Shown here in pieces: positions 21,137-64,000 of a stretch of 64,000 bases of DNA; position 1 is the first letter of the stretch, and each line of letters begins with the position of its first letter. Both the position numbers and the translations under genes were made by a program. Below the pieces are notes generated by a model. It saw only the letters and a list, made by a program, of their open reading frames with translations. It ran no database searches and was not told the DNA's origin. This DNA is from Takakia lepidozioides (taxonomy: Eukaryota > Plantae > Bryophyta): the NCBI GenBank assembly GCA_030704615.1, contig CM060734.1, positions 55,552,001 to 55,616,000 of the forward strand, in the 5' to 3' direction.

Positions 21137-21167
<31 letters not shown>

Positions 21168-26469: not shown

Positions 26470-27263
26470 ATTTGGTGTCATAGTAGCAGTGACATGATGC
26501 GTCGTCGACCATGCAGATCGCTTCTCTTGACGTCTTTCGAACAAACGATTATCGCATGCAATGACTTGGGTGATGAATTCACTCAGTGTGCTCACGTTTA
26601 ACAAATCTTTTACATCATCTTTTAGTCCACATCGAAACTGACTAATGAGGCTCTTCTCATTCCAGTCGAGGTCGCACGCAAGTTGTCGAAATTCGGCAGC
26701 ATAAACGGAAGCAGGACGTGTTCCTTGTCGAAGATTTCGCATCTTTGTTTCTGCAACTCTCTCTCTATCATTCTCTCCAAACGTTGCAGTGAACTCGGAC
26801 ATGAATCCTTCAAAATTATATAGTAAATGCGAATTTTTTCTATTAGCGGTGCAAACCAAGATAAGGCAGTGCCTGATAGAAGGGTGCCCACGAATCCCAC
26901 TTGAATACCTTCATCGGGGTAGCGTTGTGGATGTAGTCGTAGGAACAGTCGTACTTGTTGAACAAAATCGCGAAATCTTGATATTGTCCCATCAAATTTC
27001 TCAATCATGCTGATCTTTGGTACTCTCGTAATCTGTTGAAGATGAACCGTTGCAGTAGGATTTGTTGCAATAGGGACTCGTATGGTTGAAGATCCATTGT
27101 TCGACTCTTTTAACTCTGAAATTTGTTGTTGCAAATTGTGGAGAGCGTTGCCAAGATCTTGAGACTGATCAGTTTGCAATTGGGCGGTAGATGTACGAAG
27201 TTCTTGCATCTAGAGTTGAAGACTCTGCAATGTGGTGACTATTTCCGTAAATGTGCCTTCCAT
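26470..27263 (-). pseudogene. Ty3/Gypsy gag fragment (chromovirus/Tf1-Tcn1-like), pol missing
   Basis: EKFDGT..RFRDFVQQVRLF, GTLLSGTALSWF, LRQGTRPASVYAAEFRQLACDLDWNE..LISQFRCGL. One frameshift; truncated after gag. Confidence 0.88.
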
Positions 27264-32300: not shown

Positions 32301-34215
32301 GCAGGTAGTAGAGATTGTACTCATAAGATGTTGTTTGCCGTAGCCTTGTGGCCATTGACCCCGCGCCCAGTTTGAGCGGGAACAAAAGGGACAGAACCTA
32401 CCTCTGTCAGGGGCTGACGTTGGTAGCAGGTAGTAGAGAGAAAGAGAGAGAGACCTGAGGGTGTCTGCAGATCATTTTTGCGATCTCCACCACACCTGCA
32501 ATTTTCAAAAACTCGATGGTGCGGTCGATTTTGCTGATGCCAGTGCCAATCACCCCTGGATACTTCATGACCGCTTTTCCTATATCCTCCTTCTGCCAGT
32601 GGGTCCAAATAATATTTATTACGACTCAAAGAGGCCCTCACATCATATCAAAGATGTCAAATTACCTAGCATTGTGAGTATAATCCCTGCAATAGGTGTG
32701 GACTAAACAAACAGCGATATAAAGAGAGGCAACCACTGCTACAGCTTCAGGCACACCTTAAAAATTAGTTCTAGATAAATTTGAGAATATTATGCTGTAA
32801 AGCAACAAATTTATTTAGGCTAGACTACATATGCAAAGCGCATACCTTTAACCCAATCTCCATAAGTTTCCGTTCCATGGGGAGCACTCGTTGCTCCATA
32901 CTATAGGTCAAAATTTGAGGGAAGCGGTCTATTATCTTTGCCACTTGCTCCTTGGTGATTCCCAGAGACTGCAGGTACTCAACCTAACCAGAACATAATC
33001 ACCGGGTATAGTTGGAAAATCTACAAACATTAATTTTCGATGACGGTGAAGTTACGTGAAAAAAGTTCACCAGGCAAAGAACCAATTCAAAAAGAAACTT
33101 CTCACATGCAAATATCGATCAAAGCAGCTCAGTTTGGCTGACTTTGATTTCGAAAAGAACAAATAACAGGCATAGAAGGATATTGGAAGCAACTAATATC
33201 AGCTTGCAGTGTTCTGTCTACTACCAGTGTAGGAAGGGTTGCAGTGTTGGCCTAACGTCATTTTCATCGGACACTCTTCGGGCATCAGACAAGGCTTTGG
33301 GGACAACCCCCTCCAGGCCAGCTTCGTCCAGTAGGGTCAATTCTTCAGGGCTGATATTAAAATACTTGAAGATATCTTCTACCTTTTCCGCCAAGACTTG
33401 GCCTGTTTAAAAAGGCGGTCGTGCTTCCAATAAATAGCTTTGATCATCTTAGGGTAGCTGGTATTCGGCATGCAATTCAACTGACCCCACCATCTGACCT
33501 TGAACTCATCACATCGAAAGCTTAAGGGAGGCATGCCAAACTCACCCCGAACAACCACATTAGCTGTTCTAGAACAATTGAACACTGCGACTGAAAGGAT
33601 TCTAGGGATTTAGCATGGTTGGAATTGCCAACCCACACAGCAACGCGTACTCCAAGGCCGGCCTTGTAACATTGCAAAACATGGTCCATTTAACTTCAGT
33701 ATTAATCCCTCTGCAGCGGAAAAATTTAGTGAGACCCAAAGCTTTGCGTTTAGCTGATTGAATCACTTTCTGTATATGTGCATCCCAGTTAAAGTTGAAA
33801 GAAAACTCAAGACCAAGGTAAGTGTAGGAAGGGAGTACAGGAATCTCTTCGTCACCCCATTTCCATTTGAGATCCCCTCCTCCCTCCCCATGGTCGTTGG
33901 ATGCCACACGGCACATTATTAAATTTTGATGGCATGATTCTATTCTGTAAGACAGACATGTGCCTCGGTGTCAACAGTGAGATATATGTACATACATATA
34001 TATGTGTATATATTGAATTAGCCACCGTTTGTAAATGGGTATTGAATTGCAGGGTTAGGGTTTTGAAACCCTAAATTTAAACCAGCTCGTTGCATCTTTC
34101 ATGCCCCTAAGTCACATGGCCATAGAACAAATTTTTCAGCATGTGCCTACTTGTCAATTGCAGGACATTCATAGGAGATATTAATTCATTCCTCCTGAGA
34201 AATTCTACCCAGGTT

Positions 34216-34274
<59 letters not shown>

Positions 34275-35311
34275 CCTACCTTTGGCCTCAGGCATTCTTC
34301 GATGCTGCTACTGGCCAGAAACACATTCCCCAGCAATGCGTCAGCAACCTTCTGCTTAGGGACCCCTCCTTCTTCCACAAGAAAAGATGCAACCTCGACC
34401 AATTTCTTAGCTGAATTCTTCAGCAATGCGCTCCGCACAGAAGAGGGCAAGTGATTTTGCAATTTAGTGAGGTCCTCATCAGTGAGGCCCCATTTTCGCA
34501 GACACCGTAACTTTTCCTCCAGGTCAGTAACATACGAAAGACTGCCTTGAGCCTCCAGTTCTTCAGAGGCGTCTTCCTCTGGGCTAAGCAGAGCGGGCTC
34601 AGGGCTGTCGGAGGGGAGAAAGTCCTTCAAACTCAGGTCAATGGTCCTGGCTGCCATATCCGGATCCTCAACAACAGCTGTAGTTGTTGCATATTTTGCA
34701 TGCGAAAAATGAGGTTCCATTTGCTTGTTTGCCAGGAACCTGAAGTGCACATCCAATCCCCCTAGAGCTCTGGAAGGCATAACACCTGGTCTCAATCCAC
34801 ATCTCAACCTGTTTCGAAGACTAGCAGTGTCTCTTTGGAGAAAGGGGACCATCATATTTTGCAACGCATGATCTAAGCCCAGTCTTAGAGTACAACGGAA
34901 AGAGACCTGAGGGGCAGAGACAACCAAGATGCTGTTGAAATCGGAGAAGGACAGGCAGGCTCTCCCATGAGATAGACAAGGTTTACCATATCCTGATATC
35001 GAAAGTGGGAGACAATCTTGATGTGTCGCTTGAGAGACAGAAGTAGGAACAACAGTTGAAGGGCACTGAGAGGGGTTCAACATTGAAGATGGGAGTAAGT
35101 ACCTTGTGGAGAACTTTCGGGCAGTGCAGCTAAGGGAAGGAGAAGGGGACATGGAGTCAGGGAGAAAAGTGACGGTGGAAGAATGATATAGGAGTGAACT
35201 ATGTCCATATGATTGCCAAGTCTCCACCAGCCCGGGTATCTTTGCATGAACATCCCCCAGCCGAGAGGTCGTTCTTCCCACTCCTCTTGCTCTCTTCCAC
35301 ACCCTCCTCAT
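29328..35311 (-). CDS. mTERF-family protein, probably organelle-targeted; exons 34280-35311 (alternative ATG 35152), 32846-32983, 32455-32592, 29896-30092, 29328-29601
   Basis: mTERF repeats (LRPKVEYLQSLG, RFPQILTYSME, RHPQILSLSLD, YSVDSNLRPKIDYF, FPQFLSYSLERRIQPR). All four introns are GT-AG with compatible phases (0,0,0,2). Long Ser/Arg-rich N-terminus. Confidence 0.9.
30670..31137 (-). mobile_element. Older LINE 3' fragment in mTERF intron 3
   Basis: Diverged LINE 3' end ([18 protein letters not shown]...GHKAMA) next to (GT)n(GC)n(GA)n microsatellites. Confidence 0.8.
31152..32425 (-). mobile_element. Two tandem 5'-truncated copies of the young LINE (31152-~32290 and 32315-32425) in mTERF intron 3
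   Basis: ORF 31158-32324 covers the post-RT region and the CPLC...HFLIHC zinc finger. GCAGGTAGTAGAGA occurs three times (31138-31151, 32301-32314, 32426-32439) as target-site duplications. Confidence 0.93.
33240..33915 (-). mobile_element. Diverged internal fragment of the same LINE family in mTERF intron 1
   Basis: [14 protein letters not shown]...RPALEYA and [11 protein letters not shown] homology. Confidence 0.85.
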
Positions 35312-35491
35312 CTCTCTCTCTAGGCGTCACCTCACTTTGTCATGATCGCACCATAGCTACAGCACCTGATCCCACAAAATCGCTGAAGCAGATGGCAACT
35401 GCAGGTCTCTGGAAGGTTTGTTGCAAGGGAAAAACCCCCACATTCCCAAACCTTCCTGCCAACCGGAAGAAAACATTTCCATTTTTCTTTG

Positions 35492-37184: not shown

Positions 37185-38928
37185 TATGTGTGGATTGTTC
37201 ATGGTGGTCTGTCTTCGTGCCCACACTCTTTGGAGTAGATGCAAATTTGTTTATGAGTTGGTCAAGTAGCTAGTGCCAAGTGTGGGGAAAGGAGGCGCTT
37301 ACAACTCTTCGCTCCCTTCGAACTCACCAAAGCTATGGATGCTGCCTCTATTCCAGCCTTTCTCAACACAAGCATCCCTTGGACGATCCCCTCCCGGATG
37401 AATGGCAAGTCTTCGGGTGAAACCCGGAGATCAAGTGGCAGCATCAGAAACACCAGCTAATAAAATGTCAAAACCTTTAATATAAAATCTGTGTCTCGTG
37501 TCTATAATCTGGAATTAGAAATATATGTAAGAAAATTATATGTTAATGTATATTTAAAAAATTAATTATCCATGATCAAATAATTCAATACACATCAGTT
37601 GGTAACATGTATATAATGAATTTGGCTATGATGGTTTTTGTTCTACCCCGACATTAATAACTTGGGACGGACAGTCTCACGTTTTTATTCCCACTGACTT
37701 TATTGTTATCGAGTCTCCTCTATCTGAGATTTATGTGCAGTTTGCAGATCGATCCTAGCTAGGTTAAGGAAATTGAAGAGACTGAGGAGAGTGATCATAA
37801 CTCAAGGATTTCGGTTTGTTGATTTAGACAAAGAATGCATTGTCAATTCTGGAGGTCATAGGAAGTCCACCGATGTTGATCGTTGGTCTAGGTGCCGCTT
37901 TGATGTTTGGAGGAAATACATGTATATTCATCATGGGAAATCGATAGAGGATATGCATGAGCGTGATGTGAAAGAGCTTGTGTCATGATGGTGCAAAAGT
38001 ATGATGAAACGTAATATCCTCTTAGACGTAAGTATTCCTTCTTTTGTTTTTGTAATCTCTTTGTGCAGCTCTATTTGTTTATTCTAATCTTAGCTAATGT
38101 TCAATTGCGTAAGCTTGGAGATTTATTCCGTGGAATTGGTTGATTGTTTTGAGCATGATTTGAGGAAGGAGTAGTGGAGACTGGAGAGCCCGGACTCCAG
38201 CTCAACATTCTTCGCCATTCTCGATTCAAACGGGTTTAAGTGTCAATTAACAATGTTGTAAATTGACAAAAAATTGATACAAACGCAAAGAATACGTTTC
38301 ATGGATACTTGTGCTAATTAATATATAACCTTTGCATTGTCTAGTGTATGTCATTCGACTTTGATGTCGACGTCTAGTGAATTTGGAGTCATGCAAAGTC
38401 ATTTGAAAGCCCACAAGGCTACAGCAGATGAGCAAACAATGCCTCATGAATACATTTTCTCTGTATCTGTCAGACCATAAGTTGGCAATTAGGGGCTCAA
38501 CACCTCCATGACAGTCCATTCATCAAATTCAAGAAGCTTAAAACAGTTTAGAAGTAGGCACCATATCGGGCTGGGATAAAGGATCTTGCCCAAACAGATT
38601 ATGAAGATATAGAGACTCTACTCGTCCAAACATGCGCCCAGAATCAAAGATAGTTTTCCGGGTTTAGCCACGTTTGGAAATTCTAACCTAGTTCGATAGC
38701 CAGAGTTTAATCACGTTTAGGGTTTAGCCACGTTTGGTTAGTCTAATCAATTTTGCGTGCTTAGCCAAAGCTTAGCCAGAACTGAGTATCAGTCATCAGC
38801 TGTGTGGAGAAATTTCACATTTTTAGAAATCTCTTAGTAACTGCCTGTTTGATTTCTTGTATTGTGTGGGTGGGGGTGCTATGGGAAGAATAGACATGCA
38901 CATTATGAGTTAGGTCTCACAAACAATT

Positions 38929-39104
38929 TGTCGTGCGCATACATATCGCTACACAACTACATCGCTGTCCAAAACCACACAACACATGTGCACACCACAC
39001 ACTAGTATACCACTAGTCCACCACTAGTCCAACCACTAGGCTACAACTAGTCAGTCACTAGGCTGCCACTATGCTGCCCACTATGGCAGTCACTAGTCCA
39101 CACA
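38929..39104 (-). repeat. Terminal repeat A, outer copy
   Basis: TG...CA-bounded 176 bp; one mismatch against 39433-39608 by eye. Confidence 0.95.
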
Positions 39105-39105
39105 A

Positions 39106-39430
39106 TAATAAAGATGAAGAATACAAGCACAAGCTCATGCGAGCTCACAAAGTTGAAGCATAAACTCATGCATATATAAACTCGTCACTCAAATACAAGT
39201 CAAGCCAAGTGCACCCCACGCCATAGGGAATCTACATTACGGCGCCATAGCTAGGCGCGGTGAGGCTCAACTCGAGAAAGATGAGCCTCCCGCTTGCCGT
39301 GAAGATAACCACTCCAGGGCCTAAATCTGCCTTGACCCCTGGATTGACACTTGGGGCAATCCCAAATGTCAATATGTAAAAGCTAGTTATTTCCTAGCTA
39401 GTTTCACACTAGTGGTAAAATAACTTGACA
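39106..39430 (-). repeat. Terminal repeat B, inner copy
   Basis: Aligns end to end with 49490-49815, with roughly 14 differences by eye. Confidence 0.95.
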
Positions 39431-39432
39431 AC

Positions 39433-39608
39433 TGTCGTGCGCATACATATCGCTACACAACTACATCGCTGTCCAAAACCACACAACACATGTGCACACC
39501 ACATACTAGTATACCACTAGTCCACCACTAGTCCAACCACTAGGCTACAACTAGTCAGTCACTAGGCTGCCACTATGCTGCCCACTATGGCAGTCACTAG
39601 TCCACACA
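39433..39608 (-). repeat. Terminal repeat A, inner copy, following the polypurine tract
   Basis: Near-identical to 38929-39104; preceded on the minus strand by TAGGGGGGCGAT. Confidence 0.95.
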
Positions 39609-39867
39609 ATCGCCCCCCTAGCTGGTGCTTAGGTCCCTCTAAGTCCAGGTAGCCACAAGATGTGATCGTGACCATAGCCTCACTAAGTCCTCCAGCACTG
39701 TCCCTACTACACTCAAACTCGATAGATCAAGAGGCCGGGTGCAAGAGTTGCCCCATCTTAGTCGTCGTCTTGCAACCTGTGAACTTGATCATGAGATCTC
39801 GTGTATTGACTCCTATGAGCTTGGCCTCCCATGTCTTGTTAGCTGCCTCTAGTCATGTCCACTGCCA

Positions 39868-40010
39868 CTATCCCAAGCAGTGTGGACACACCAATCTCCA
39901 TCATGAACCTTCTCAAGAGGTGGTATCAAGCATCCCATGTGCCAACCTCTTGAGCATCGATCACACACCAGCATGGTGGTTGCCCCTTTGGCAGACCCAC
40001 AGAGCATGCA
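39868..40010 (-). pseudogene. PHD finger at the C-terminus of the retrotransposon integrase
   Basis: CMLC-x9-LVCDRCSRGWHMGCLIPPL...GDW; after a 1-nt frameshift, CPHCLG*. This is the C4HC3 pattern. Confidence 0.9.
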
Positions 40011-40099
40011 CCTCAAACCTGCAGGCACCACTACCAAGTTTGGGTCAACTCTGCCATCGTCATTGGGAAGGTGACATGGCGCACAATTACACACATGGT

Positions 40100-41170
40100 C
40101 CTTCCAAGTCATGCCATCCCGACCCTCCAAGATCAGGACCCCTGAGGGCAACACCTCTTGAACCCTCAGAATAACACGCCCTGCAGTGTATGAGCAGTCT
40201 GCTGCAAATAAACATAGTCACCAGGGCTAAACCTCCGAACCCCGGGACGATATCCTCCACCACGTATAGTGGCATACCTCAATGTATCACGGTGTTGTGC
40301 AATGGCAAGGTTTTCAAAAGCCATGGGCATGACTTTCTTGAACAATTCTGCACGCTGATCACATGCACGTACCCACACGTCCGGATCGTCAAGGTTAAGG
40401 ACTTGAGTAGTGTCCCTACGAATGGCTGCAGGAAAATTCGGCTCTTGGCCAAAGAGAAGGAAATACGGTGAGAATGAGGCAAGTGATGCTTGCTTGCTGA
40501 ACCTGTAGCCCATGGCTAACCAAGGCACCTGAAGATCCCAATCTCCTAGGTGTCCCTTCTGCAAGTCATACTTACGCAAACCCCTCTTCACTGTCTGAAC
40601 AACAACTCTCCCTACCAAGCCATCGGCCTCAGGATGATCCCAAGAAGTGGTGCGGTGGTCTATCAAGGCTTTATCACACAAAGCCTGAAACTCCCCCAAG
40701 AACTCTCTCCCTTGGTCCGTGAACACCTCAGCTGGAGCACCGAATCGGCTAAGCACACGATCCAAGAACGCATACGTAGCCCCCTCACTAGCCTTGTCAG
40801 GCAATGGAACCAACTCAATCCACTTGGAGAAGTGCTCCACCATCACCAACACATATCTGTGGTGACGCATAGTCAGTGACAAAGGTCTTGCGAAGTCAAG
40901 ACTCCACCTGTAGCCCAATCCCATGATCAGAAGAGGATGCAACTGGGGTGTAGGGGCGTTGAATGAAGCACCCACCCTGTCACACACCATGTACCTAGCC
41001 ACGAACCGTTGCACCTCTGTGTGCATACCACGCCACCAATACTGCCCCTGCAGTAGACTGTGAGTGCGTCGCACTCCAAAATACCCCAACTCCTCATGGG
41101 CATGCCGCACTAACCGTGTACGCTGTGTTGGGTGAGGCACGATCCTCACCCGACCATCCTCCCACACTCG
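40100..41170 (-). pseudogene. Retrotransposon DDE integrase
   Basis: ORF 40166-41167: degenerate HHCC (HEELGYFG...YWW...YMVC), WSLDF, FSKWIE, FTDQGREF, HPEADGLV, SPYFLLFG, FSPGDYV. Confidence 0.93.
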
Positions 41171-41499
41171 AAGTAGGTGTATCCCCTCCCACTTGAACCT
41201 CTTGGCTCGTTACAGGATCCGATCCCTCTCTCTGGCAGTCACAGTGGCTGTCGTGTCTCCCATGCGGAGGTAGTCCAACACAGCCGAATCCTCATGTATA
41301 TCTTTGGCACCACCTGGCTCATCACTAGCCTCAGGGTCCTTAGACACCCCGTCTACAGTCATCCCTGTTGTAGGTCCAACCTGACCTCCTGATGCCAAGA
41401 TACACAAAAATACAGATGCGTGCCATTCCGGCACCATCTCCTCGTCTGTCTCACCATGCCACCGAGCTCTTGTTTCATCCTGCTGGTTCGTGCATGGAT

Positions 41500-42870
41500 T
41501 GCGACTCAATCCATCCGCATCCCGATTGACCAAACCCAGTCGATGCACAACCTGAAAGTCATACTCTTGGAGTATGAATGCCCACCGTGCAAGCTTCCCC
41601 GTAAGCTTGTCTGATTCCATCAACCACTTGAGTGGCTGGTGATCCGTGACAAGGGTGAAAGATTGTCGTATAGATAGCACCTGAAGTGTGCCACGGCCCA
41701 TACTGCAGCTAAGCACTCTCCCTCATATGAGCTATACTTAGCCTCTACAGCGTTGTTCAAGCGGCTAACATAAGCCACTACGAACTCTCTTCCCTCATCA
41801 TCCACCTGTGTGAGCACCGCTCCAAGCCCCAACATGCTCCAATCCGTATGCAGCTGAAAAGAACGCCCTCTGATAGGTCGTCTCAGGATAGGCGCCGAGG
41901 TCAACCTCGCCTTGAGCTCTTAAAAAGCTCGTTCCTGCTTATCTTCCCACTGCCATTCCTGGTCCTCCTTGATAAGCTTGGTTAGAGCCTTTGCAATGGC
42001 ACTAAATCCCTTGACAAACCGTCTATAATAGTTTGCCAACCCAATGAAAGCTCGAACTCGGCTCACATCCGTGGGGCGTGAAATTTGTGCAATGGCCTCT
42101 ACCTTAGTCTGCCGTACCCCCAATCCTCCAGGATATATCATGTGACCCAAATACTCAATTTGGTTGTGGAAAAACTTGCACTTCCCCGGGTGCAACTTCA
42201 ATCCGTGCGCTCTCAAGCGCTCCAATAGCACCTGAAAGGTGTCTCTCGTGCTCCTCCACCATAGCACTAAAGATGATGATGTCATCTATGTAGCACCGAG
42301 CAAAGTCCACTCCTGCTAGAATCCTATCCATGACTCTCTGAAACTCTGCAGGAGCGTTCTTAAGCCCAAATGGTAAGAACCGCCACTGATATAGGCAATC
42401 ATTTCCGTGCTCATTGATCCCCAAGATTGCCGTCTTCTGCTTGTCCATCTCCTTGATCGGCAACTGGTGATATCCGGATCATAAATCCATCCAAAGTGCT
42501 AAAGACCTTAGCATGCCCAATGGCATCAAAGATCTCATCCGGTGTGGGCATGGCATACTTATCGGACTTGGTCTGACGATTTACAGGCTGGTAATCACCG
42601 CACATACGTCTCTCCGTCCAATTGCCATAGACATCCTTCTTGGCTGGCATCACTGTGGCTGAAGCATACTCTCTACCAGAGAGCTCCACCAAACCAGCCT
42701 CCCAGAGATCTTGAGTCCTCATCTGAATCAAAGACCTCTCCATGTCACTGTATCTATAGGGTCTCCGAAAGATTGGCGTGTCAGTGGCCAACTCAATACG
42801 AATCTCTTGACCCTTCAGTGCTCCCAAGTCCTTCAAACTGAAAGCAAAGCAATTCCTATAAGCCCTCAAG
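41500..42870 (-). pseudogene. Reverse transcriptase and RNase H (Ty3/Gypsy type), frameshifted
   Basis: RRPYRYS, RRMCGDY, FSTLD, LPFGLKNAPAEFQRVMD, YIDDIIIFS, IEYLGH, FIGLANYYRRFVKGFS. RNase H: LHTDWS..GLGAVLTQ, ECLA, TDHQPLKWL, NRDADGLSR. Confidence 0.95.
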
Positions 42871-43289
42871 AACCGCCGTATACGTCGTCTATCTCCTCCG
42901 GTGACAATGGGTCCAATGTCAGGCTCCCAATTGTCCTCCGTAACTGCAACCTTAAGTCCAGTGGGCTTAGAGGTAGAGGACGCGTCCAGTGGTTGCTATG
43001 TTGCAACCTCTTGAGCAGTACTCCCTACCTGCTCAGTCAATGACAAGGCTTCATCCTGCCCCATCATCTCATCTTCGAGGACTTCCTCAACCCGAGAAAA
43101 ATCCCCAACCTCATCCATCACCGCCACCTTGGCTGCCAACTCCCTCTGAACCTCGAGTACCTCCCACGTGTGCCATGGATGCCTGCACCCCGTGGTCTTC
43201 TCATGCTCGCCCCCACTCATTGCCTGTACCGTCTCGGTAGGCAGAGAGACCATCGAGGGAAGTGTACTCCGCACTCTGCGTTGCTCAGC

Positions 43290-44260
43290 CATAGCCAAGC
43301 TGATAATCCAGGTCAAGCAATTGAGATCCATTGTTTGCCCCAACACCTGACGACGTGATGCTTCAGAAAGAGACGACACCGCCGTGGTACCAGTGGTAAA
43401 ACCCATGGCCCGCTCACGCTCGTCAGCATTAGGCTCCACTAACTGCTGCAACTGAGCATCCCACAGGAGGCCAGGTCCACTATCCCGAAAAGCATGCGAT
43501 CCTGGGAAGCTGAGCAGTGTAGGTAATGCTGCTCGTGGTTAACCCACCTTGTTGACCACTACCAAAAACGAACGGTCATCATGTTTCACACGCTGAGACT
43601 GCCTCCCTGTGTCCAAATTGCTACCACTGTGAGGTGTGCTGGCCACTGCACCCCATCAAATGCACGCTTGAGCAGTGCAGGTGGCATCAAGTTAGTCCAC
43701 CATAGCCGTGGACGATGAGCCCGTGACCCTACTATAGCTGCATCTAGCAACACTGCTGATCCAAGCCACGACCGGACTTGATGCACGCTGGCCATCACCC
43801 TGGCACGAGAATCGCCCATCAGTGGCACATTTTCCAAGATGCATGCTGGAGATACAGCTTGATGAAGCTGCAAGTGACGCAAAACCTGCACCATCTCCCA
43901 AAACAGACCCGACCTCGAGTCTCGCAATCCATTGCCATGCCCGGCTGATGAATGCCCTTGGCAGGGCCAACCTGCCACTACCAGATCAATGGAGCCAACC
44001 CGCTCCAAATCATGCGCCCCCAGTAACGAAATATCTGCTGGCAAGGCCTACTGATATCCACGAACTGCAGACACCGACAACAACTCAGGGTACTGCTGCA
44101 CCAACCGAGCAACATGGCGAAGTGAAACGCGTCGTGCAGTGTCATCCCTCTCCACATACAGGTAATGCCGAACTCGTACACCTGCCTGTAACACAACAGC
44201 CAATCCAGTGCTGATCCATTCAAACAAGTCCAGAAGACAAATGCCTTCATCCAGATACTG
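43290..44260 (-). pseudogene. C5 cytosine DNA methyltransferase domain (DNMT3-like motif order) within the polyprotein
   Basis: I LLDLFEWISTG (degenerate FxGxG); II YVERD; III DIS; IV DLVVAGWPCQG (PC at 43961-43966); V SGLF; VI LENV (43826-43834); VII LDAA; VIII HRPRLWWTN; TRD LPTL; IX ERERAMGF; X RRQVLGQTMD. Confidence 0.93.
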
Positions 44261-44659
44261 CCACACAATAGGTGTGGTATCCAATGGTGACAACTAAGGT
44301 GGTCCTGGTGCAATCCCTGCACTCTCCTCCTCTCTTGATGGTACGAAAACCTCCACCCAGGTTTGTTGTACCCGTCGATCAGCAACCCGCTGCAAATCCT
44401 TGCTCGTACCCCACAATGGAGCCTGAGCAACCATGGCAGACAACTCCGCCATACCATACATGTCATCCTGCTCTCCTGGAGGTGTATCATCCTCTGAATG
44501 AGCGTTGCCCTCTAGCAACTCTCTAGGCCAAGTCACTGCAGCTGTGAATGCTGCTAGTGTCGGCATCTTGCCCCGCTGGGCAACCAAAACTCCTCTTATG
44601 AACGTTACAGGGAGCTGCACACGCCGGCCCTCCCCTGACTGCCATCCAAGCCTATAGGA

Positions 44660-44990
44660 AGCTGACTCCTCCAAAAAATCCAGGGTGAAGCCCATGGGGT
44701 ACAACACTGCCCCACCAACCAGGACATCGTACGAGACCGCGTCCGTCACAATGGCCTTGGCTCGCATCACTGAGCCATCTGTAGGGTGATCCGGCCATAG
44801 TCTGATAGCCAACTCACGCCGTGTCATGCCCCGAGCCTGCTCCAATCCTCCCAGAGACGTCTGTATCTGGAAAAGACAAGGCTCCATATCTGCCTCCGCG
44901 AGGCCCAAGTCTGCAATAGCAGCTCTGCCCAGCATCAATGGTTGAGCTCCTGAGTCCAACAAGACCCGTAGTGGCCGGTACCTCTTGCCT
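44660..44990 (-). pseudogene. Retroviral-type aspartic protease
   Basis: RVLLDSGAQ ... IQTSLGG ... YDVLVGGAVL in ORF 44294-45265. Confidence 0.88.
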
Positions 44991-45799
44991 ACCGGTCCAC
45001 TCAAACAGAAAATGTCATCCTGGTTGTCTAACATGACAACTCCAGGTGTCACCATGGCGCGCTCAATGGCTGGCCTAGCTGGCAGCTCCATCAACCTGAC
45101 AACTGTAGCTTGCCATGGCGCCGCCGTGGCAGTCTTGACCCTCAAATCCGAGGATCCCTCCGGCACTACACCTCCCACTATCTCCGCGGAAGATGAAGTA
45201 ACCTCCCCACTCTCACAGAGTGTAGCTGCCAGCCTGAACACCTCAGCTGGTCTTACCCCCGGCAATCATGATAGCTGAGAACAATGGAGTTTGGCACACA
45301 GATGTGGCCGCTCCCAGCAACACACTAGCTGTCGTAGCCTTGGCAACACTAGGTAGTGATGCTACCCGTGTAGCTCTCCCCAATGGCATAGTAATCTCCG
45401 CCTCGGTAGCAGTCGGGCGAGAATTAGGTGCCATGGATGGCGTCGACACTATCTCCACCAATGTGAATGATTGAGGAAGCCTAGCCTTACGGCTTGCCTC
45501 TCCACGCTGTGGATCCAACTCCACCTCTGCACCTCGTGGCTCAGGAGTTCGTGCTGCTCCTCGAGTCACGGCTGCAGCAGACTCCACCTGCACTAGTGGT
45601 AGTGCTGCTCCACACATGAATCCCATGCCTCCCATATCTCCTTCCTCAGGAGCAGGAGGTGGACCATCCGGCCTTGGAGCTGGTACCACCTGAGCTGTAG
45701 CCATGGCAACGAGCCCCTGCTCTAGCTGCTGAAGCCGGTTGGTCATGCCTTGGTCAACACCCTGACCTCCGCGTCCTTGGCCATGTTGAGCTTGCCCTT

Positions 45800-47106
45800 G
45801 GCCTGCACCTCGTGCCTGGCCACCTCGTCCTCTCTGGGCTGCTCCACCTCGCCCCGGCCACCATTGTTCCCTTGGAACTAGCCTGGGCGCAACTCAGGAT
45901 GCAAACCATAACACTGAGCTTCTCCATGCCCGTGCTTGCCACAATGCCCACACTGCAACTGTGCAGGCTGTGCATGTGCCGGCCTTTTGCCTCCCTCTGG
46001 GCAATCCTTCTTGACATGGGGTCCTCCACATGTCCAACACACCACCTCCGCCCGTTGTTGGCCTGCAAATGAAGGGAGAGACCCCTGCATCTGAGGTCCT
46101 CTCTATCCTTCCCTGAGCTTCACTTGAGCCCCCTTGTTGCCTTGAGCACGTTGAGGTAGTGGTTGGCTAGGAGCACCACTACCCTGTGGTATCTCCTTAG
46201 CAAATCCCACCATGGCCACTCGTTCCTCCACCATGTTGAGCTCTATCCGCTCTGCCAGCAAAAACACATTTGTTAAAGTGGGTTGGGCCGCTTGTAGGAG
46301 AATTGCATCTCGCACCCTTCTCCTCAGCTCTTTGTCCAATATCCCATACCAGAATTGGACTGTCCTTTGGGTTACATTTAGTAAGCGCCTCATGCGAGTG
46401 AAAGCCTCCCTCAAGCTCTCAATAGGCTTCCGTTGGAACTCTTGCAAGCTCCGCAACTTCTCTGTCCTCACCCCTTGGTAGTTCCTTCTCAACTCTTCGA
46501 AGAACTTCACAATAGGGTTGAAGGCAGGTACGGGTACTAGTGCTGGTGCGGTAGTGGCTTGGGTGGACGTCGTAGCTATAGTACCACCAGTCCCACTGCT
46601 GCTTGCTGAAGCTGCCAGTGCAGCGACAGATGTAGCCAATGCCCTCGTGGCTCTAGTGCCCCTAGTGATAGAGACATAGTCGGATCGATCTCAACCTTAT
46701 GCCCCCGCCTGAGCTCCTGATAATCATCCATAGGCAGCCCCTCAAGGTGTTGAAACAACCCCTTCCATGCCATGAAAGGCGTAAATAGTTGTGGATTGCG
46801 CATTTGCTGCAAATCACACCAACTATCAAACTCTTGGATAAAATCATCCAACTCGATGGTGCCCACCGCCCCAGAGTATCTTCGTGGCCCCTTGGTAGCT
46901 CCATACATCTCCTCCATTGTGTCCCACAACAATGGCAAAGAAACAACTTGCACCGCCGGTGTGAGTCCTCCTGATTCACAATCCGAGTCAGAACCTTCCG
47001 TATAAGACACAGGAGGTGAAGGTGGCCTAAACCGCACACCTCGTCTCGTGTACCCACTAATATCGCTAGTGCTCGAACCGGCACTGTCCCCAACAACTAG
47101 TGGCAC
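45800..47106 (-). pseudogene. gag with two zinc knuckles
   Basis: Capsid-like RYSG...LDDFIQEFDSW and FQRKPIESLREAFTRM; knuckles CWTCGGPHVKKDC and CGHCGKHGHGEAQC; frameshifted. Confidence 0.85.
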
Positions 47107-47599
47107 CTCCGTGTTGACAAACTGTCACTCAACCGGTCAAGAACATGTCCCTAATCCCCTCTCCACAAGGTAACCGGGTAGAGAACCTGTTGCGGCTTAT
47201 GGTTTGGAATACTAGGTTCCTAACATAGCCTACACCTGCACCTGCATCCACCGCAAACACTCCTATGGTTGGCTGCTCATCACCTCCAACCTCACCACAG
47301 GAGAAACAATGATGGTCTGACTGGTCATCACCCCAGCCTCACCATCGACAGCATGATCTAGAACTGGCTGGTGATCAAATCCGGACCAATCACCTATAAA
47401 AACAAGCGCCCACACAAAATTAACATGACGCACAGTCAAGCATGCAGGTATGGAGGGGATCCAAACACAAGAAATCAGAACGACAACTCCCCTACACCAA
47501 AAACAACTCCATGGTGTTGCTCCAAAATTCGGCCTTCAAGACCACATGCCAGTCCTTAGGCAGTCCACCAGTGCCTCCACGAATCAGCACAGGCCGTCC

Positions 47600-47950
47600 A
47601 CAGGTCAACACGGCCACCACAGGGCCACACAGATCACTGGTCACAGGATCATAGCCCCACAGGCCACAGCCTGTCACAGCCCGTCACAGCCCCAAAGGCC
47701 ACAGGGCACAGTCTGTCGCAGCCTGTCACAGCCCTACACAGGTCACAGGGTCACAGCCCCACAGGCCACAGCCTGTCACAGCCCATCACAACCCCAAAGG
47801 CCACATGTCACAGCCTGTCACAGTCCGTCACAGCCCCACAGGCCACAGGGCAGAGCCCATCACAGCCCGCCACAACCCCTCACAGCCCCACAGGCCACAG
47901 GGCACAGCCTGTCACAGCCCCTCACAACCCATCACAGCCTGTCACAGCCC
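47600..47950 (+). repeat. CACAGCC/GTCACAG minisatellite in the retrotransposon leader
   Basis: Repeated cacagccccacaggccacagcctgtcacagccc units. Confidence 0.9.
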
Positions 47951-48399
47951 CATCCATGGCCACTCATGGCAGTTTAGCCATTTCTCCAAGGGGTTTAGCC
48001 ACGCCAAGCTAGGGTTTGTGTCTCTTGGACTCTAGGCTTCTTTGCACCGAGCTATGGCAGCTGCGAGGAAATCAACAAGGTATTCTTGCTCTTTATGGCC
48101 CCCACACACCACCAATAGTAGCTCTAATTCCAAAGGAAGATGTTTGCAACCGAAACTAAGTGCACAAGCTTCATTTTAACTCACAAAACAGCGTTATTGA
48201 TCCCTATGGCGACTAACCAAACATGGCTGACTTCCAGCCCTTGTAGGCACTCATTCACGTGCTTTTCTTGACCATAGCATGCCCTTCGCACCTAATCTAG
48301 CCCCTGCACCTGCTGCGTTGTGCTCCCTTTAAGCTTGAAGTTGAAACCCCAACTCACATAGGCCCTACAAGTGCTTTTAGTTCACCCCAAGTGGAAACC

Positions 48400-48810
48400 A
48401 GCCCTAGCCCTTCTGTTCTAGCTCTCTAAAACTTGAAAACAAGAGCCTCAATGGGCTGAAGGCATGCTCCACACATGCCCCACTCTCACCATAAGAGAAT
48501 CAGCTCATTTGCTTCATTTCTTGCACCCACAAACCTGAAAATACAAGCTTCAGCGGGCTGAAAGCATGCTCCACACATGCCCTACAGGGAAACCAGCCCC
48601 TTCCTTCTTTTCTTGCACTCCCAAACCTGAAAGTACAAGCCTTCAACAGGTTCAAAGCATGCTCCACACATGCACTGCACTCACATAAGGGAAGTCAGCC
48701 CTTCCCTCTTCTTTGCTTGCCCTCCAAGCTTGAAGATGGAAGCTTCAATGAGCTGAATACATGCTCCACACATGCAACCTCTTCACACAAGAAGTATCAG
48801 CCCCCTATCT
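48400..48810 (+). repeat. About four ~100-bp tandem repeats in the retrotransposon leader
   Basis: catgctccacacatgc recurs near 48463, 48566, 48658 and 48760 with conserved flanks. Confidence 0.85.
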
Positions 48811-49489
48811 TGGCTCCTTGGCTCCTTGATGCTCTCTAAGACAAGACTAAGCACTCCACAGCCTTTGCCAAGCTCCTGAAACCCTAAGGCTTACATTTCC
48901 AGCCACAAGACACTCCTCTTGTGGTGCAAGAGCTCTTCTTCCAAGCTCTGAAACCCTAGGTGCACATTCCATGGCCTTGCCGCACCTCTTAGCTCCTGTT
49001 CCAGCCCTGCTCTTGCCATGACAAGAGCCCTCTCAATGCTGAAGCTCGAGATTGAAACCCAATCTCAACATACTCCACAAAGTGCACTGATTTGCCCCAA
49101 GCCTAATCAGCCCTTTCGCTTGGTCTTGCAATCCTTCACACAATGAAAGTTCGCATTCCCAAGTCCAGTTCTCAGTTTTGCCACCAAACCTACTCTAACC
49201 TGCTCTTGACTGGTCCTCTTCCCAATCGTGCTTGCTCATGCATGTACACAATTTGAAACCATCAAGGTGCTCTGGAATTACCTGCAGCATGGTGCTTTCA
49301 TATCTGAAGCTGAAGATCGAATGCCAAGGTCTACTACCTCGTAACCCACATCGTCTCCGCTTCTAACAACCAAGAGCTCCACGGTGCTCCTTGCATAACA
49401 ACCTGGTTTCTCTTATTCTGAAGCAAAAACCACAAGTGCTACAACAATTCGTATCTGGCACTTACAGATACGAGCTCATCTTTCTCGAG

Positions 49490-49815
49490 TGATAAAGAAG
49501 AAGAATACAAGCACAAGCTCATGTGAGCTCACAAAACTGAAGCATAAACTCATGCATATATAACCTCATCACTCAAATACAAGTCAAGCCAAGTGCATCC
49601 CACGCCATAGGGAATCCACACTACGGCGCCATAGCTAGGCGCGGTGAGGCTCAACTCGAGAAAGATGAGCCTCCCGCGCTTGCCGTGAAGATAACCACTC
49701 CAGGGCCTAAATCTGCCTTGATCCCTGGATTGAACTTGGGCCAATCCCAAATGTCAATATGTAAAAGCTAACTATTTCCTAGCTAGTTTCACACTAGTGG
49801 TAAAATAACTTGACA
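49490..49815 (-). repeat. Terminal repeat B, 5' copy
   Basis: TG...CA-bounded 326 bp matching 39106-39430. Confidence 0.95.
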
Positions 49816-51830
49816 AATTCAAAAAACAGGTGAATTGATGAATTGAAAAATTGGTTCTATTTTAGAAGGATGCTCAGTGCAGCCAACATCTGCTCAACAT
49901 TGATGCCCAAGGCAATGTACCTGCGTATCAACAGGTCAGGAAAATCAAGCAACTTCATCATCAATGATATTATGCTAACAACTAGCTTATCCCTAAATCA
50001 GATGAAGTGACATCCTATCTGGATGGGCACTTGGCTAGAATCTAGGCAGTCGATCAGGGCATGCCAACTTGTTGTGATAAGATCATGGGCATTGGATTAT
50101 TAAAGGGATCAGCGCAAAACCTAAGGCGGCTGGTGTACTTTGAAAGTGTAACTTTCGTGTACGAGAGAGACGGATGTGCATGCGTATGGATGAACTGAGA
50201 ATCTGAGTGTGAAAATTGACGTCCTCTACGAGTGATCCTTCCTTCCTCGCTTGCTTGTTCTGCCGAGTTTACATCCCTCATTTAGCGCAAACCTATAGAG
50301 GAGTGAAATAACCTGGAATAACCTGGGCGTACGCGAATCTTGGTAGAAACGGGTGGCAAGATCTCGTCAATCATTAACTGTGCCAAGTAGAAGTACACTG
50401 ACGGCTTTGCAATGGGGGCGCTTTTCAATTCTCGTTTGTGTTTGTGCTTTTGTTTGCTTCCTGTTGCTGTTGCGTTTTCTCATGTTCCTTTGATCTTCTT
50501 GAGGGTTATTGTAATAAATTGATGCAACCAAATGGGAGTGCGATTCACTGGTCACAAATCTCGTACATGTGATATGACATTGACATTGATGCAATATATA
50601 GCAGGGTGGTGCATAACATCGTCTCTTGCGTATATCCGGCACGGAGGGAGACGTCTCCTAGAAAGCCGTACTCAAAATACAAACAAGAACAAAGAATAAG
50701 CTAAGAAAGTTGAATAAATGCTCAATAATTGTTGATATGTTATTGTCTTGTTCAGATTGTGTTTGTTTCACTCATTGTTCGGTACGACTCATGTGGTTAC
50801 ATCGATTGCTACTACTGACAATGATATTCTTATTTTTGAAGTGGTTTAGGAAGTAAAGATGTTATTGTGACGCAAGAGGTGAAGGTTCCGATTGACCATG
50901 AAGAGGGATTCTATGAAGAGGGATTCTACTGTATGCCTGAGGTTCTTATTTCTGTTAACATTGCAATTGCAAAGATATTGACATGGCTAACATGAGGGTT
51001 GGGCAACACACAAATTTCATTTTACGGTTCGCAATGTTGCAGCTATTCAGAGTTGGGAAAGAAGGCTTCATGATGATTAGAATGTACCGGAGTGTATATT
51101 AGTATTGATTTTTGTTGTATTTTAGCAATTTTATAATCAGCATGTAGTCATTGCATTGATAGTAAGCAATTTATGGAGCGGAATGAAGGGCCAGGCTCTT
51201 GAGGTGCGTATCCCTTGATGGATTTGAAGAAGGCTCTCGTTGGTGGGAGTATCTAGAACAATGAATCAAAAAATGGATATGGTCTTGAGGTTGCCCACAC
51301 ATGGACATTTGCAATCTCCCAATTATCTCTACATGTATGTGTTATTCAAATGTAGGCTTTCCCCCAGGTTTAAATTTTAGTCTATTGCCAAAAGTGGGTA
51401 AAGCCTTGCTCAAGGATCGTTTCACCAAAACAAATAGAAGAAAATAGGGTTAGAGGAAATTTCGTACCCGTTGTTGAATTGAGGTTGTTGACAACCTCAA
51501 TTCCAAAGGCTTTAGATTGGCCATATCAGTTCCTACCTACCTTGCTGCATTATTGTGAATGGAAGCGTTGAGAGGGGAAGGTTGCACCACCTATTAATAT
51601 CCACTTCCTCTTCGAGTTCATAATGTTCATGTTCTCCCAATCTACTACAATCTACCTCTAAAAGTAATCAACCAAGTTAAATCTTTCTCCTTCTCCATAG
51701 TAGGAATTCAAGTTTAGTACAAAATTAGTAGAAGATTAGTAGAAAAAACTGATGTATTTTGAACATGATATGACCGATTTGTTGTATGTGTGTACATGTA
51801 TATTATACTGTTTAATATCTTGTGGGCCTA

Positions 51831-54135: not shown

Positions 54136-57100
54136 CTAGATCCCAACCACAGCCCTCTGTCCCTGGTGTGGGAGGCCACTCCCCATATTGTTGCTAAATC
54201 CAGGCTGTGTAAGCAACATGCCATCAGATGAAGTAATATAATAGTTATTATTATTATTGCGCGATCCTGCAACAGCTTCAAGACGCTTCCAGGTAGTCTC
54301 ACGCTTCTCTTCAAGCCCCTTGGCCTTGGCCTCATCCTCTTGGAACTTGAGCTGGCATTCCTGAAAGAGCTCTTGGTCCATCTCCAGAAACATTTTGCGC
54401 ACATTGAGTGTCAGTCCATGCACTGCTTGGTTCCAATGGCTACGTGTATTCCTCTCCAGCGATGTGTAGATCAAGGGGAGCACAACCTGCCGATTTTGAG
54501 CCACTAAGTTCACGATGTGGTCATTATTCCACAAAAACAAAGCACGCTCCGACACCTGGGGCACCAAACAGCCCACCCAGTTGGATGAAGAACATGGAAG
54601 AATAACAAATTGAAATTTGATGAGCAGCACACACACACACACACAGAGCACCCATTCCCAAAAGGAAGGTGTCACTAGAGCCAACATCTCAAGGAAGGGG
54701 GCATAGAGGCGTTTGGTTTGCAAAAGTAATCATAGAATCAGAGTAGAGATAGTCCAGTCCATGCAAGTAAGCAAGCCAGTAAGCGCCCATTCCAAAAGGA
54801 AGACCAAATACTCAAGCAAGGGCACATATAGAAGCCCTTGGTTTGCAAAAGTATTGCTAGAATCAGAGTATAGCTTGTCGAGTCCATATAAGTTCCTCAT
54901 AGTGTCAACTCTCTTTGTGTTGTCAACTCTCTTGGTTGGTCAACGGCCACAAGGCTACGGCAAACGTCGTCTTATGAGTACACTCTCTTTGTGTTGCCAT
55001 ACTAAGCAGCCCATCATGGTGTTAAAGGAGTCTGAATGGATACCTTCCTGGTAGCCATAGTGTAGTCAGCTCCTTCAGCCCTTGCCTGCTCCTCTTCTAA
55101 ATGAGAAGAGTCCAGGCTTTCTAACCTTATAGGGCAGCAGCTTGTCAAGACCTAAGGAGAACCCTACTGAGTCATCCTCATGAATCATCCGGTTCTCCAT
55201 TTTCCCGTTCCGATCTAGGAAAATAAATCGGAACAGCATAATCAGGCACTTCTTGATGGTTGTTGACAAAGAACTTAGCATCAAGGAAAGAGAATGTACA
55301 CATAAGACGTTATTTGCCGTAGCCTTGTGGAAATTGACCCGCCCAGTTTGAGCGCAACAATTCAAGGAAGAGATTGTACTCATAAGACGTTGTTTGCCGT
55401 AGCCTTGTGGCCATTGACCCCGCGCCCAGTTTGAGCGGGAACAAAAGGGACAGAACCTACCTCTGTCAGGGGCTGACGTTGGTAGTAACACTTACCTCCA
55501 TATAAATCCGGGTTTTCCAGATATCCTCTAGAAATCCCTTCACACAAGCATCAATCTGCTGTGTGTGATTTGCCCAAAAACTAGGCCTCAGGAGGGCCTG
55601 GGCTTTTGGCTCAGCCTCGAGACTTGCAAAGTTGGTAAACAGGGGTACAGGCACAATTCCCTTAATAGATTTGAAGAGAGCGTCTCTTTGGTGAGAGAAC
55701 CCCGGACAGTGTATCAGAAAATGAATACTGTCTTCAGATTGCCCACACAACGGGCAATTGCACTCTCCCTTTCCTCTCTGCTTCTGTTTGCTGTTCAAAG
55801 GTAGGCTTCCTGCCCTGAGTTTAAATTTCAGTCTAGTGCCGAGAGTGGGTAGACCCTTGAGGTCATCCAAGATGTCCTCCCCCATGTCACAGACTGGAAA
55901 CAAGTTCAGGGAAGTTTTCTGCCTAACTTCATTTTCATCAGACAATCTCATGGCAACAGACATGGCTGAGGACACTACAGCCTCTAAGTCAGATTTATCC
56001 AGCAGGGTCAAGACTTGCGGATCCAGGTCCAGGTCCTTGAGGATCTCTTCTACTCTCTTCTGCCAGGACTTAGCCTGTTTGACAGGGCGGTCCTGTTTCC
56101 AAGATATAGAGTCGATTAATTTAGGATATCTGGTGTTGGGCATATGTTGCAGCTGACCCCACCATCTGACCTTGAATTCATCTCGTCGGGAGCTTAAGGA
56201 CGGAATGCCAAACTCACCCCGAACAGCCACATTGGCTGTTTTGGAGCATGCTGACATACACTCCTTAAGCACCCCCACTTGAATGGATTCTAGAGACTTA
56301 GCCTGGTTGGAGTTATCAACCCATATAGCAGATCCGTACTCCAAGGCAGGTCTAATAACGCGACAAAGCATCGTTTTCTTAACCTCAGAGTTGACCCCTC
56401 TGCAGTGGAAAAATTTAGTGAGCCCCAGAGCTTTGCCCTTGCCAGTTTGAACAACTTTCCGGATATGTGCATCCCAATTACAATTGGAGGAAAACTCAAC
56501 GCCCAGGTAAGTGTAGGAAGGGAGGACCGGGATCTCTTGGCTACCCCACTGCCACTTAAGATCACTTCCTCCCTCTCCTCTGTCGTTGAATGCTACCACT
56601 GCACATTTGCTGACATTAGCCTCTAGCCCCCAAAGATCAAAGTATCTCTTCGCACAATCAATCAACTCCTGGAGATTGGTTGGAGTCTCCCCTATGCCTG
56701 CGAAGTCATCCGCAAACATAAGGGCTGGTATGGTGGTATCACCCACCCTTAACCCAAATCCCTCACTTTCCACATCCTCGAGGAGTTGATTGATGAAAAC
56801 ATTGAAGAGCAGAGGGGAGAGAGTACATCCTTGAGCTACACCTTGGTCTATGTCAAAGAAGTTGGACTTCTGTCCGTTAACAGTGACACAGCTTTTGGTG
56901 TGAGCATACAAGTTGTGGACAACTCTCCACATCTTTCCCTTGATCCCACAAGACCAGAGGCGGAACCATAGGCCATCCCTCCACACTGTGTCATAAGCCT
57001 TTTTGACATTCAGGAAAAAGACATAAATGGGTTTCCCTTCTTTTTTCCTTCCCTGGATAATCTGGCTTAGAGTGAAGATATGATCCACACAGCCCCTGTT

Positions 57101-59004: not shown

Positions 59005-59045
<41 letters not shown>

Positions 59046-63478: not shown

Positions 63479-64000
63479 GCCTAGCTACCTATCCTGTTCC
63501 CCTCTCTTCACCTGCCTGTGTATGTTCTAAACACTTGCATGCGCAAGCCCTACGAGAATACCCCCTTAAGGTGATGTCCTGGTGACCACCACTGCATTTG
63601 CAAGATGCTGTTTTAGAGCACGCGTCCACATCTACCGGGTCTGCACTTTTCCGGCATCCCACACAGTGCTCAGCCTTGCCAGTATGCCATCGGAGCTATC
63701 CAATCCACCGTCGCACTGCTTTCAGTACTTGCAGACATGTCCTCTGCCTGACAATCTGGCACAGAGGAAAATTAGTGCAGACGGCAAAGGTGATGGTTAA
63801 CAGCAGCCTCAAGACCGTTCTTGCACGCTACAAATCCAAGTCCCAAGCATCTCATCAGACCCTACAGCGATCGCCATGCCGGGGCCACCACTCACCTTCT
63901 CCCCACAAAGTCCACATCCATCAAGCGGACTCCCAATGCACAAACATCGAGCAGGTACCAGCGCCTAGCCAGCTACGGCCGGAACCTCCAGCAAGCGAAC

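Follow-up and report, generated by a model that had tools for sequence, protein, structure and literature searches.

The closest described system to the one reported here is KnitGypsy-Dnmt3 of Klebsormidium nitens, a retroelement that encodes a Dnmt3 in its Pol frame, has DIRS-like repeats and is under purifying selection (PMC5890265). De Mendoza et al. (2018, PMC5890265) regarded the capture as confined to the lineage of K. nitens, posed methylation of cDNA as a hypothesis and left open the purpose of retroelement-encoded enzymes; in yeast, the enzyme of SymbioDIRS-Dnmt3 methylates CG de novo (PMC5890265). Such elements in "streptophytes" are mentioned by two later papers of the de Mendoza group. 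Here we analyse a stretch of 64,000 nucleotides from the bryophyte Takakia lepidozioides (GenBank GCA_030704615.1, contig CM060734.1, positions 55,552,001 to 55,616,000; hereafter the window, to whose positions all coordinates refer), which contains a Ty3/Gypsy element of 10,887 bp on the minus strand (38929-49815) with a DNMT3-like C5 cytosine methyltransferase (DNMT) domain. Plants silence transposons by DNA methylation, yet the family of this element carries its own DNMT3-type writer from algae to mosses and liverworts.

A conserved stop between methyltransferase and reverse transcriptase

In this clade the DNMT comes last in a Gag-protease-DNMT frame, which a conserved stop codon closes. 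The arrangement is intact in locus L060, where two open frames of 1369 aa (gag-protease-DNMT) and 1047 aa (RT-RH-IN-PHD, that is reverse transcriptase, RNase H, integrase and PHD finger) lie in phase, one TAG apart; L040 and L059 share this stop. L-numbers denote metagenome loci and P-numbers proteins; the metagenome scan confirmed 302 stretches, the results given here come from the best 80, and many loci are one insertion recurring in different samples. An initial annotation of the window, made from the sequence alone, had called the DNMT an integral pol domain and not a passive insertion; integral it is, but it ends the Gag-protease-DNMT frame and does not share one frame with RT. In the window copy the stop is the TAG at 42996-42998 on the minus strand, which with the CAA CCA behind it (42990-42998 in all) spells UAG-CAR-YYA, the type I readthrough motif of the tobamovirus consensus (PMC3542737).

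The start of RT is visible in 53 sequences, 44 from the subclade of the window element and nine from a sister family. Of the 44 subclade loci, 41 have a stop (29 TAG, 12 TAA) 15-22 codons ahead of the anchor, with CAR-YY behind it; two of the others have a double stop at the site and one is frameshifted. The context after the stop is CARYYA in five (the window, L040, L058, L059 and L060), CAACCC in 34 and CAACTC in two, and the background for TAG-CARYYA is 35/9533. The initial annotation had placed DNMT and RT in a shared frame, one TAG apart, and this part of it has to be revised: conserved across the clade, the TAG is, to judge by the aligned sequences, not decay but a predicted programmed site. 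Nine Marchantia gene models consist of gag-protease-DNMT without RT, as a readthrough model expects. Since the sister family (L068-L079) and the Klebsormidium protein P0071 have DNMT and RT in a single frame, the stop site is a derived trait. This second family has GWECQ in place of GWPCQ at motif IV, split repeats as in the window element, and an apparent change of frame by -1 from gag to pol, besides its joint DNMT-RT frame. In L071 and L079 a further stop, ahead of the DNMT, was dismissed as decay, since seven sisters have Trp at that position. By eye, folding of the 70 nt 3' of the conserved stop, done without shuffles, gave no common structure.

These data point quite strongly to readthrough at the UAG, likely at low frequency. 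Several observations weigh against such confidence. About six families underlie the stop counts, since many rows repeat one insertion, and the counts cover the window and the metagenome loci (of the host's own sister copies, 40 of 909 differences were listed). The largest family has CAA CCC and not CAR YYA (34/41), with an ATG directly behind it, so that re-initiation is possible there, and a Met within 14 codons is also found in L058 and L059. The stop could thus be real while RT and integrase arise from splicing, re-initiation or an internal transcript, which would still leave the DNMT at Gag level. Precedents exist, in that Ogre elements have an intron that divides GAG-PROT from RT-RH-INT (PMC6317226) and pol expression of Tca2 is largely independent of gag translation (PMC2194720). 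We consider this route improbable, however, because the two frames invariably share one phase with a single codon between them, CAR-YY is kept across families although the surrounding sequence has diverged, and neither the window nor L060 has a nearby ATG: the first Met past the stop falls within RT, at a distance of 85 codons in the window and of 117 in L060.

A mechanism is proposed in which the first frame, Gag-protease-DNMT3-like methyltransferase, would be translated in bulk and end at the UAG, with occasional readthrough yielding RT-RNase H-integrase-PHD. Because the DNMT ends the frame closed by the conserved stop, it would be made at the level of Gag and packaged in Gag-like amounts, and the packaged enzyme would likely methylate the element's own new cDNA. 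The conserved stop therefore predicts that the enzyme is an abundant particle protein and not a rare pol product. Taken as a whole (a decayed copy of an amplified Gypsy family, readthrough, an active enzyme packaged at Gag level, and cDNA methylation), this is the explanation that we favor, with reasonable but limited confidence; for cDNA as the main substrate the balance tips only slightly in favor.

An active enzyme could instead enter the nucleus and act mainly on chromatin, whether at the insertion site, on parent copies or on host DNA, and so limit or camouflage the family. An enzyme at Gag level exceeds the need of one cDNA per particle, the integrase bears a chromatin-reading PHD finger, the host DNMT3b of a moss methylates heterochromatic transposons (PMC6453930), and de Mendoza et al. 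raise host benefit and effects on the epigenome (PMC5890265). The domain has no targeting domains of its own, however, as the first frame of L060 carries only PF00145 and the protease; as part of a Gag precursor the DNMT would be assembled into particles; and the Klebsormidium methylome is ordinary (PMC5890265). A chromatin target is accordingly given a minor share of the probability, and methylation of cDNA inside the particle is retained as the preferred reading.

The methyltransferase domain

The reading frames listed in the initial annotation are present, and its description of the domain (43290-44250, minus strand; placed by Pfam, tblastn, profile and model) largely holds. PF00145 matches at 43586-44047 with E=9.8e-13 and 48.6 bits against a cut-off of 22. 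The C5-methyltransferase motifs I-X all follow in order between 44233 and 43320, unpermuted and with the catalytic signatures that had been claimed: motif I at 44233-44216 (reading LDLFEW), II at 44158, IV as GWPCQG at 43972-43955, VI as ENVP at 43834, VIII as HRPRLWWTN at 43717, IX as ERERAMGF at 43421 and X as LGQTMDLN at 43343. The Marchantia protein P0009 spans the whole domain by tblastn in two frames, at 71% and 73% identity, with no intron-sized gap, in agreement with the intronless domain proposed earlier. The lesions of this copy are stops at 44048-44050 and 43539-43541, a frameshift near 43620 and a changed motif I at 44218-44220; the annotation had the one frameshift right but had placed only a single stop inside the domain.

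The suggested resemblance to DNMT3 is borne out by two rankings. A profile of 37 relatives searched against solved structures placed human DNMT3A (1e-25) and DNMT3B on top, followed by DRM2 (5e-11), DNMT2 (2e-9) and M.HhaI (3e-8). An AlphaFold model of an intact relative, the L040 domain (24-row alignment, pLDDT, the predicted local confidence score, of 87), shows a full methyltransferase fold and matches DNMT3A/B/C chains in all rows listed, with template-modeling (TM) scores against DNMT3A/B of 0.64-0.69 by query length and E about 1e-17. By rank of both sequence and predicted fold the domain is thus DNMT3-like. A DRM identity was rejected, since the motif order is unpermuted and DRM2 matches profile positions 63-189 only. 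In a viral collection only distant matches were found (27-48% identity over short parts), and an Atlas look-up returned generic C5-methylase clusters only, one streptophyte and two viral, which is uninformative on origin.

Catalysis by live copies appears probable from sequence and fold. In the metagenome loci the catalytic Cys is present in 79/79, the Glu of ENV in 73/79 and the second Arg of motif VIII in 66/75. Against this, the motif IV Pro is replaced by Glu (WEC) in 10 loci, and WEC is the commonest form among the representatives scored, with 60 of them; and the domain of KnitGypsy-Dnmt3 was inactive in yeast, a result that its authors called inconclusive (PMC5890265). The WEC variant and the yeast result would also suit a particle component without catalysis, retained for binding DNA or for structure. 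Conservation of the S-adenosylmethionine-binding and catalytic residues over very distant families and the full fold of the model speak against such a role, which we regard as quite unlikely.

Distribution, phylogeny and selection

A search with a 153-aa core of the domain retrieved 109 proteins, with named matches at 51-76% identity in Marchantia, Calypogeia, Sphagnum and Riccia and at 48% in Klebsormidium, and a profile search gave 519 representatives at E<=1e-30. The metagenome loci show the order gag-protease-DNMT-RT-RH-IN(-PHD) wherever neighboring domains are present, and two Closterium members have protease-DNMT or DNMT-RT forms. A large Gypsy clade (P0235, P0259, P0274, P0290 and others) instead has the same DNMT3-like domain between RNase H and integrase with a PHD finger behind; this RT-RH-DNMT-IN-PHD order occurs in 30/148 representatives, one of which is a Scenedesmus pol. 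The DNMT domain has been relocated within the element at least once.

Separate trees of DNMT and RT, which the initial annotation had proposed with the Klebsormidium element included, agree with each other, and the two domains have descended together. Each tree has 44 rows and a midpoint root only; P0264, P0076 and P0312 were excluded for short RT sequences, and the RT distances of L018, which look inflated by misalignment, were disregarded. The window subclade (eight stop-clade rows) forms one group with branch support, as the Shimodaira-Hasegawa-like approximate likelihood ratio (SH-aLRT), of 95 in the DNMT tree and 99 in the RT tree. A single branch divides the 14 rows with the order protease-DNMT-RT from all others (SH-aLRT 95 for DNMT and 78 for RT), and Klebsormidium P0071 falls inside the same group as the window element in both trees.

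Between families the DNMT is under purifying selection and not neutral. The ratio of nonsynonymous to synonymous substitution rates (dN/dS) of the DNMT is 0.07-0.23, above that of RT (0.03-0.15 where estimable); for the pair L058-L060 it is 0.12 at dS 0.26, with 0.04 for RT and 0.31 for the protease. Two points detract from this: close dead copies have median DNMT values of 0.57 (458 pairs) and 0.71 (34 pairs), with RT at 0.42 and 0.46, and dS is near saturation in the distant comparisons. The broken state of the window copy and its lack of introns might have suggested that a retrocopy of a host DNMT3 had been inserted passively, once and into one element. This is refuted by the recurrence of the domain, across many species and families, at one and the same position, by purifying selection, by the congruence of the DNMT and RT trees and by equal depth of the two domains in sister copies of the host.

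State of the window copy

The window copy is a dead member of a highly amplified family. In one DNA run that contains the stretch, summed contig depth over the element is 1.5e5 to 1.1e6, compared with about 70 for the flanking contigs; this ratio of ~10^4 is not a copy number and is taken only as a sign of high abundance. Depth over the DNMT is as high as over RT, with no dip, so that the sister copies do not lack the domain, as neither do the metagenome loci and bryophyte proteins with the same order. The lesions in the DNMT are private to this copy, because >98% of depth in its sisters shows a different base at each of the stops and at motif I, and some contigs have one more base at the frameshift. 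The initial annotation had thus rightly called this copy dead. Compared with its sisters the copy differs at 29/771 places, of which 20 are of deamination type (CG 5, CHG 4 and CHH 11, with 60, 104 and 246 sites available), too few to read. Depletion of CpG was considered as a sign of self-methylation and rejected, as the observed/expected ratio of the element (0.52) is close to that of host exon (0.62). Two runs guessed to be RNA had contigs on the element, but these could be DNA and allow no statement on expression.

Repeat layout, priming and integration

Membership of the element in a Ty3/Gypsy-DNMT3 family is near certain. Pfam matches on the minus strand comprise an aspartyl protease (weak), PF00145, RT, RNase H, the H2C2 and rve parts of an integrase, and a PHD finger. 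The gag-PR-RT-RH-IN order (PR, protease) with a DDE integrase is that of Ty3/Gypsy elements, and so are the TG...CA ends (termini TGTCA...CGACA) with a short target-site duplication. Two identical terminal long terminal repeats (LTRs), however, are not found: the repeats are ordered A-internal-B-A-B in 7/8 complete elements and A-internal-B in one. The extent 38929-49815 follows from this repeat layout and from the depth of sister-copy contigs, which begins and ends at these positions. DIRS/PAT elements have a tyrosine recombinase and lack a target duplication; such an identity was rejected, since this element has an rve integrase and a 4-bp duplication. Both the split repeats and the PHD finger had been overlooked in the initial annotation, whose inventory of the polyprotein was to that extent incomplete.

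Read along the minus strand, the element is preceded by the left copy of the target-site duplication AATT (49816-49819) and begins with repeat A1 (49492-49815, 324 bp, 95% identity with A2), within which lies a 17-nt stretch (49654-49670) that is the predicted transcript start and self-primer. Its complement, the putative primer-binding site (49474-49490), sits directly behind A1. A long 5' leader contains two tandem-repeat arrays with periods of ~102 bp (47635-48775); a CACAGCC-rich tandem array elsewhere in the window (16327-16625) has a motif similar to that of the leader array at 47635-47950, in a different setting. The gag with zinc knuckles (45243-46917) is disrupted by stops and frameshifts and was located by tblastn with P0009, Pfam matches being weak (E 0.08-0.1). 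The aspartic protease region and linker (44294-45265, LLDSG at 44962; tblastn, weak Pfam match with E=0.02) leads into the DNMT, and behind the conserved TAG follow RT and RNase H (41210-42995; Pfam, tblastn), disrupted by frameshifts and one stop, the integrase with its H2C2 zinc finger and rve core (40166-41209; Pfam) and, at its C-terminus, the PHD finger (39849-40217; PF00628, E=2.6e-7). A G-rich polypurine tract (39611-39620) adjoins repeat B1 (39433-39610, 178 bp, 99.4% identity with B2, ending in CGACA). The B1/A2 junction CGACA-GT-TGTCA (39426-39437), a predicted integrase cut site, joins the element ends head to head across a 2-bp spacer; repeat A2 (39108-39430) and repeat B2 (38929-39106) then complete the element, which is followed by the right copy of AATT (38925-38928).

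Self-priming of the Tf1 type is very probable from these sequences. In three families, 7/8 elements have a primer complement at the equivalent place, with different letters. All 9 elements examined have a G-rich tract ahead of B1. The complementarity beats all 300 shuffles in only 4/8 elements, however, and is absent in L028, which counts against the assignment. The true LTR would be B-NN-A, since the primer site follows A and the purine tract precedes B. In the replication model that we propose, ordinary reverse transcription, starting from the self-primer that follows A and from the purine tract ahead of B, would yield [B-NN-A]-internal-[B-NN-A], the cDNA ends would be joined at A/B (the A2/B2 joint being the predicted trace of this step), and integrase would cut the CA-NN-TG palindrome inside the upstream LTR to give A-internal-B-NN-A-B. 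This sequence of LTR, end-joining and internal cut is held only a little above even. The B1/A2 junction has the form CA-NN-TG with a spacer of exactly 2 bp in 12/12 cases, with TG reading TA in three, and the 4-bp target duplication is exact in 6/8 complete elements, has one mismatch in one and is absent in one. The A2/B2 joint is irregular in 6/13 cases, and the A/B joint of L026 and L029 (probably one insertion, a rearranged locus) still has 9 nt from the primer site, which is what joined cDNA ends would leave.

Three observations fit this model poorly. L075 has no target duplication; the divergence between A1 and A2 (95%) differs from that between B1 and B2 (99.4%); and the mirror form A-B-A-internal-B is found in 0/23 5' ends, though a symmetric two-LTR circle should yield it, so that a one-sided cut has to be assumed. 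The B repeats are more alike than the A repeats in 5/5 elements compared (the window element, L067, L071, L075 and L076), possibly through gene conversion between near copies. Extra strand transfers, a proposal made for DIRS-like elements, remain an alternative to end-joining. A CpG adjoins the predicted cut in three families, and we speculate that the choice between the two identical junctions might be made through the element's own methylation of this CpG. From the repeat anatomy follows a replication route, open to testing, for Gypsy elements with split LTRs; programs that look for two terminal LTRs would probably overlook such elements or delimit them wrongly.

The PHD finger of the intact locus L060 is closest to those of CHD4, PHF12, PHF21A, KAT6A, ATXR5, KDM5A, DPF3 and UHRF1. 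Most PHD fingers of this set read H3 tails unmethylated at K4. By analogy the PHD of the element would, with somewhat better than even prospects, bind such tails as well, and integration may be steered to chromatin with K4-unmethylated H3.

A wider reading joins these strands: an ancient green-lineage clade would have moved its recoding site behind the DNMT3 in mosses and liverworts, thereby gaining a methyltransferase at capsid level, pre-methylated DNA and integration through a palindrome cut inside the LTR in place of the cDNA ends, possibly with methylation-guided choice of junction and with the host methylome possibly shaped. We put this forward tentatively, as the less probable outcome. 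If it is true, the very high copy number in the host could have shaped the host methylome. Independently of this, many of the bryophyte gene models labeled "DNA methyltransferase" are frames of transposons, and the members in Marchantia, a genetic model, make the purpose of retroelement DNMTs testable in a plant.

Neighboring sequences

Exons of a PP2A B' (B56) gene lie at 54136-54729 and 62036-63484 (minus strand), with LINE copies in the intron between them. The gene is closest to bryophyte proteins and groups with mosses (81/89), outside Sphagnum and Ceratodon/Physcomitrium, which makes a moss host likely, with moderate support. A young LINE family occupies 11100-13300, 30600-33950 and 55000-61000, its copies being 98-99% identical over 300 bp; a 68-nt unit recurs in it 11 times, often beside (AG)n runs, which looks as though this microsatellite formed its tail or served as its target. 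At 1798-3460 (minus) there are ~13 tandem units of 127-131 bp, broken by indels, longer than the usual 105 bp and without a Pfam hit; they translate to a motif, LVDMYAKCGS, which we take to be PPR-like. Remains of a CACTA/En-Spm transposase (Transposase_21, DUF4218) are found at 4310-7303 (minus), a NIF phosphatase-like frame among repeats (PF03031, E=7e-12) at 17199-17606 (plus) and a fragment of another Gypsy gag (Retrotrans_gag) at 26362-27209 (minus). Neither 20200-24720 (minus), presumably a decayed L1-like element, nor 34205-35326 (minus), a frame that we assume to be mTERF-like at its end, has a Pfam hit at 1e-3. The 64-kb window contains no tRNA genes.

Comparison with known systems

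The capture of a DNMT by a Gypsy element and the repeat layout are already known from Klebsormidium, as the initial annotation had stated in part, and with the same capture, layout and clade in KnitGypsy-Dnmt3 (PMC5890265) the novelty is lower than that annotation held. The land-plant range and the readthrough and priming models were not found in open-licence print, where no description of land-plant members, of this readthrough site, or of priming and ends in split-LTR Gypsy elements was met. In the available text of PMC5890265 "PHD" has 0 occurrences, and readthrough, self-priming and target duplication are likewise absent; "Marchantia" and "Sphagnum" are absent from three of its supplementary files. 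The text of the REXdb survey, whose detection relied on two LTRs, contains no "PHD", "Marchantia" or "Klebsormidium".

Other retroelements with C5 methyltransferases differ more strongly: SymbioDIRS-Dnmt3 and SymbioLINE-Dnmt belong to other classes, a tyrosine-recombinase DIRS and a LINE (PMC5890265), and EpiLTRs pair a DNMT4-related domain with a DAM domain (bioRxiv 10.64898/2026.05.21.726589). Chlamydomonas Gypsy-7a_cRei is also a green-lineage Gypsy with a PHD finger in Gag-Pol, but its LTRs are paired and no methyltransferase is among its listed domains (bioRxiv 10.1101/2022.06.16.496473). Like Tf1/Sushi and Tcn1, the window element has a primer-binding site that is the complement of sequence within the upstream repeat (PMC7175516, PMC6317226); unlike them it has split repeats in place of two ordinary terminal LTRs and a PHD finger in place of a chromodomain. 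Foamy-virus integrase is a DDE integrase that also cuts a head-to-head palindromic 2-LTR junction, but that junction is made from cDNA ends, whereas the palindrome of the window element is fixed inside the LTR (PMC1180852).

As in tobamoviruses with type I readthrough, an in-frame UAG followed by CAR-YYA would set the ratio of two products (PMC3542737), and as in Tca2, SIRE1 and MuLV, frames are separated by a stop (PMC2194720). In contrast to all of these, the stop in the window element, known here from sequence, comes after protease and DNMT and before RT, which would place the enzyme on the abundant product. With KnitGypsy-Dnmt3 the element shares the Gypsy domain set, an intronless and unpermuted Dnmt3-type domain with conserved catalytic residues, DIRS-like repeats and purifying selection (PMC5890265); the domains of K. 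nitens KFL_009030040 (P0071), presumably such an element, are arranged protease-DNMT-RT-RH-IN, and the protein lies in the same group of both trees. The two differ in that the host of the window element is a land plant, and in that DNMT and RT of P0071 occupy one open frame, whereas in the window family they are split by the conserved UAG-CAR-YY.

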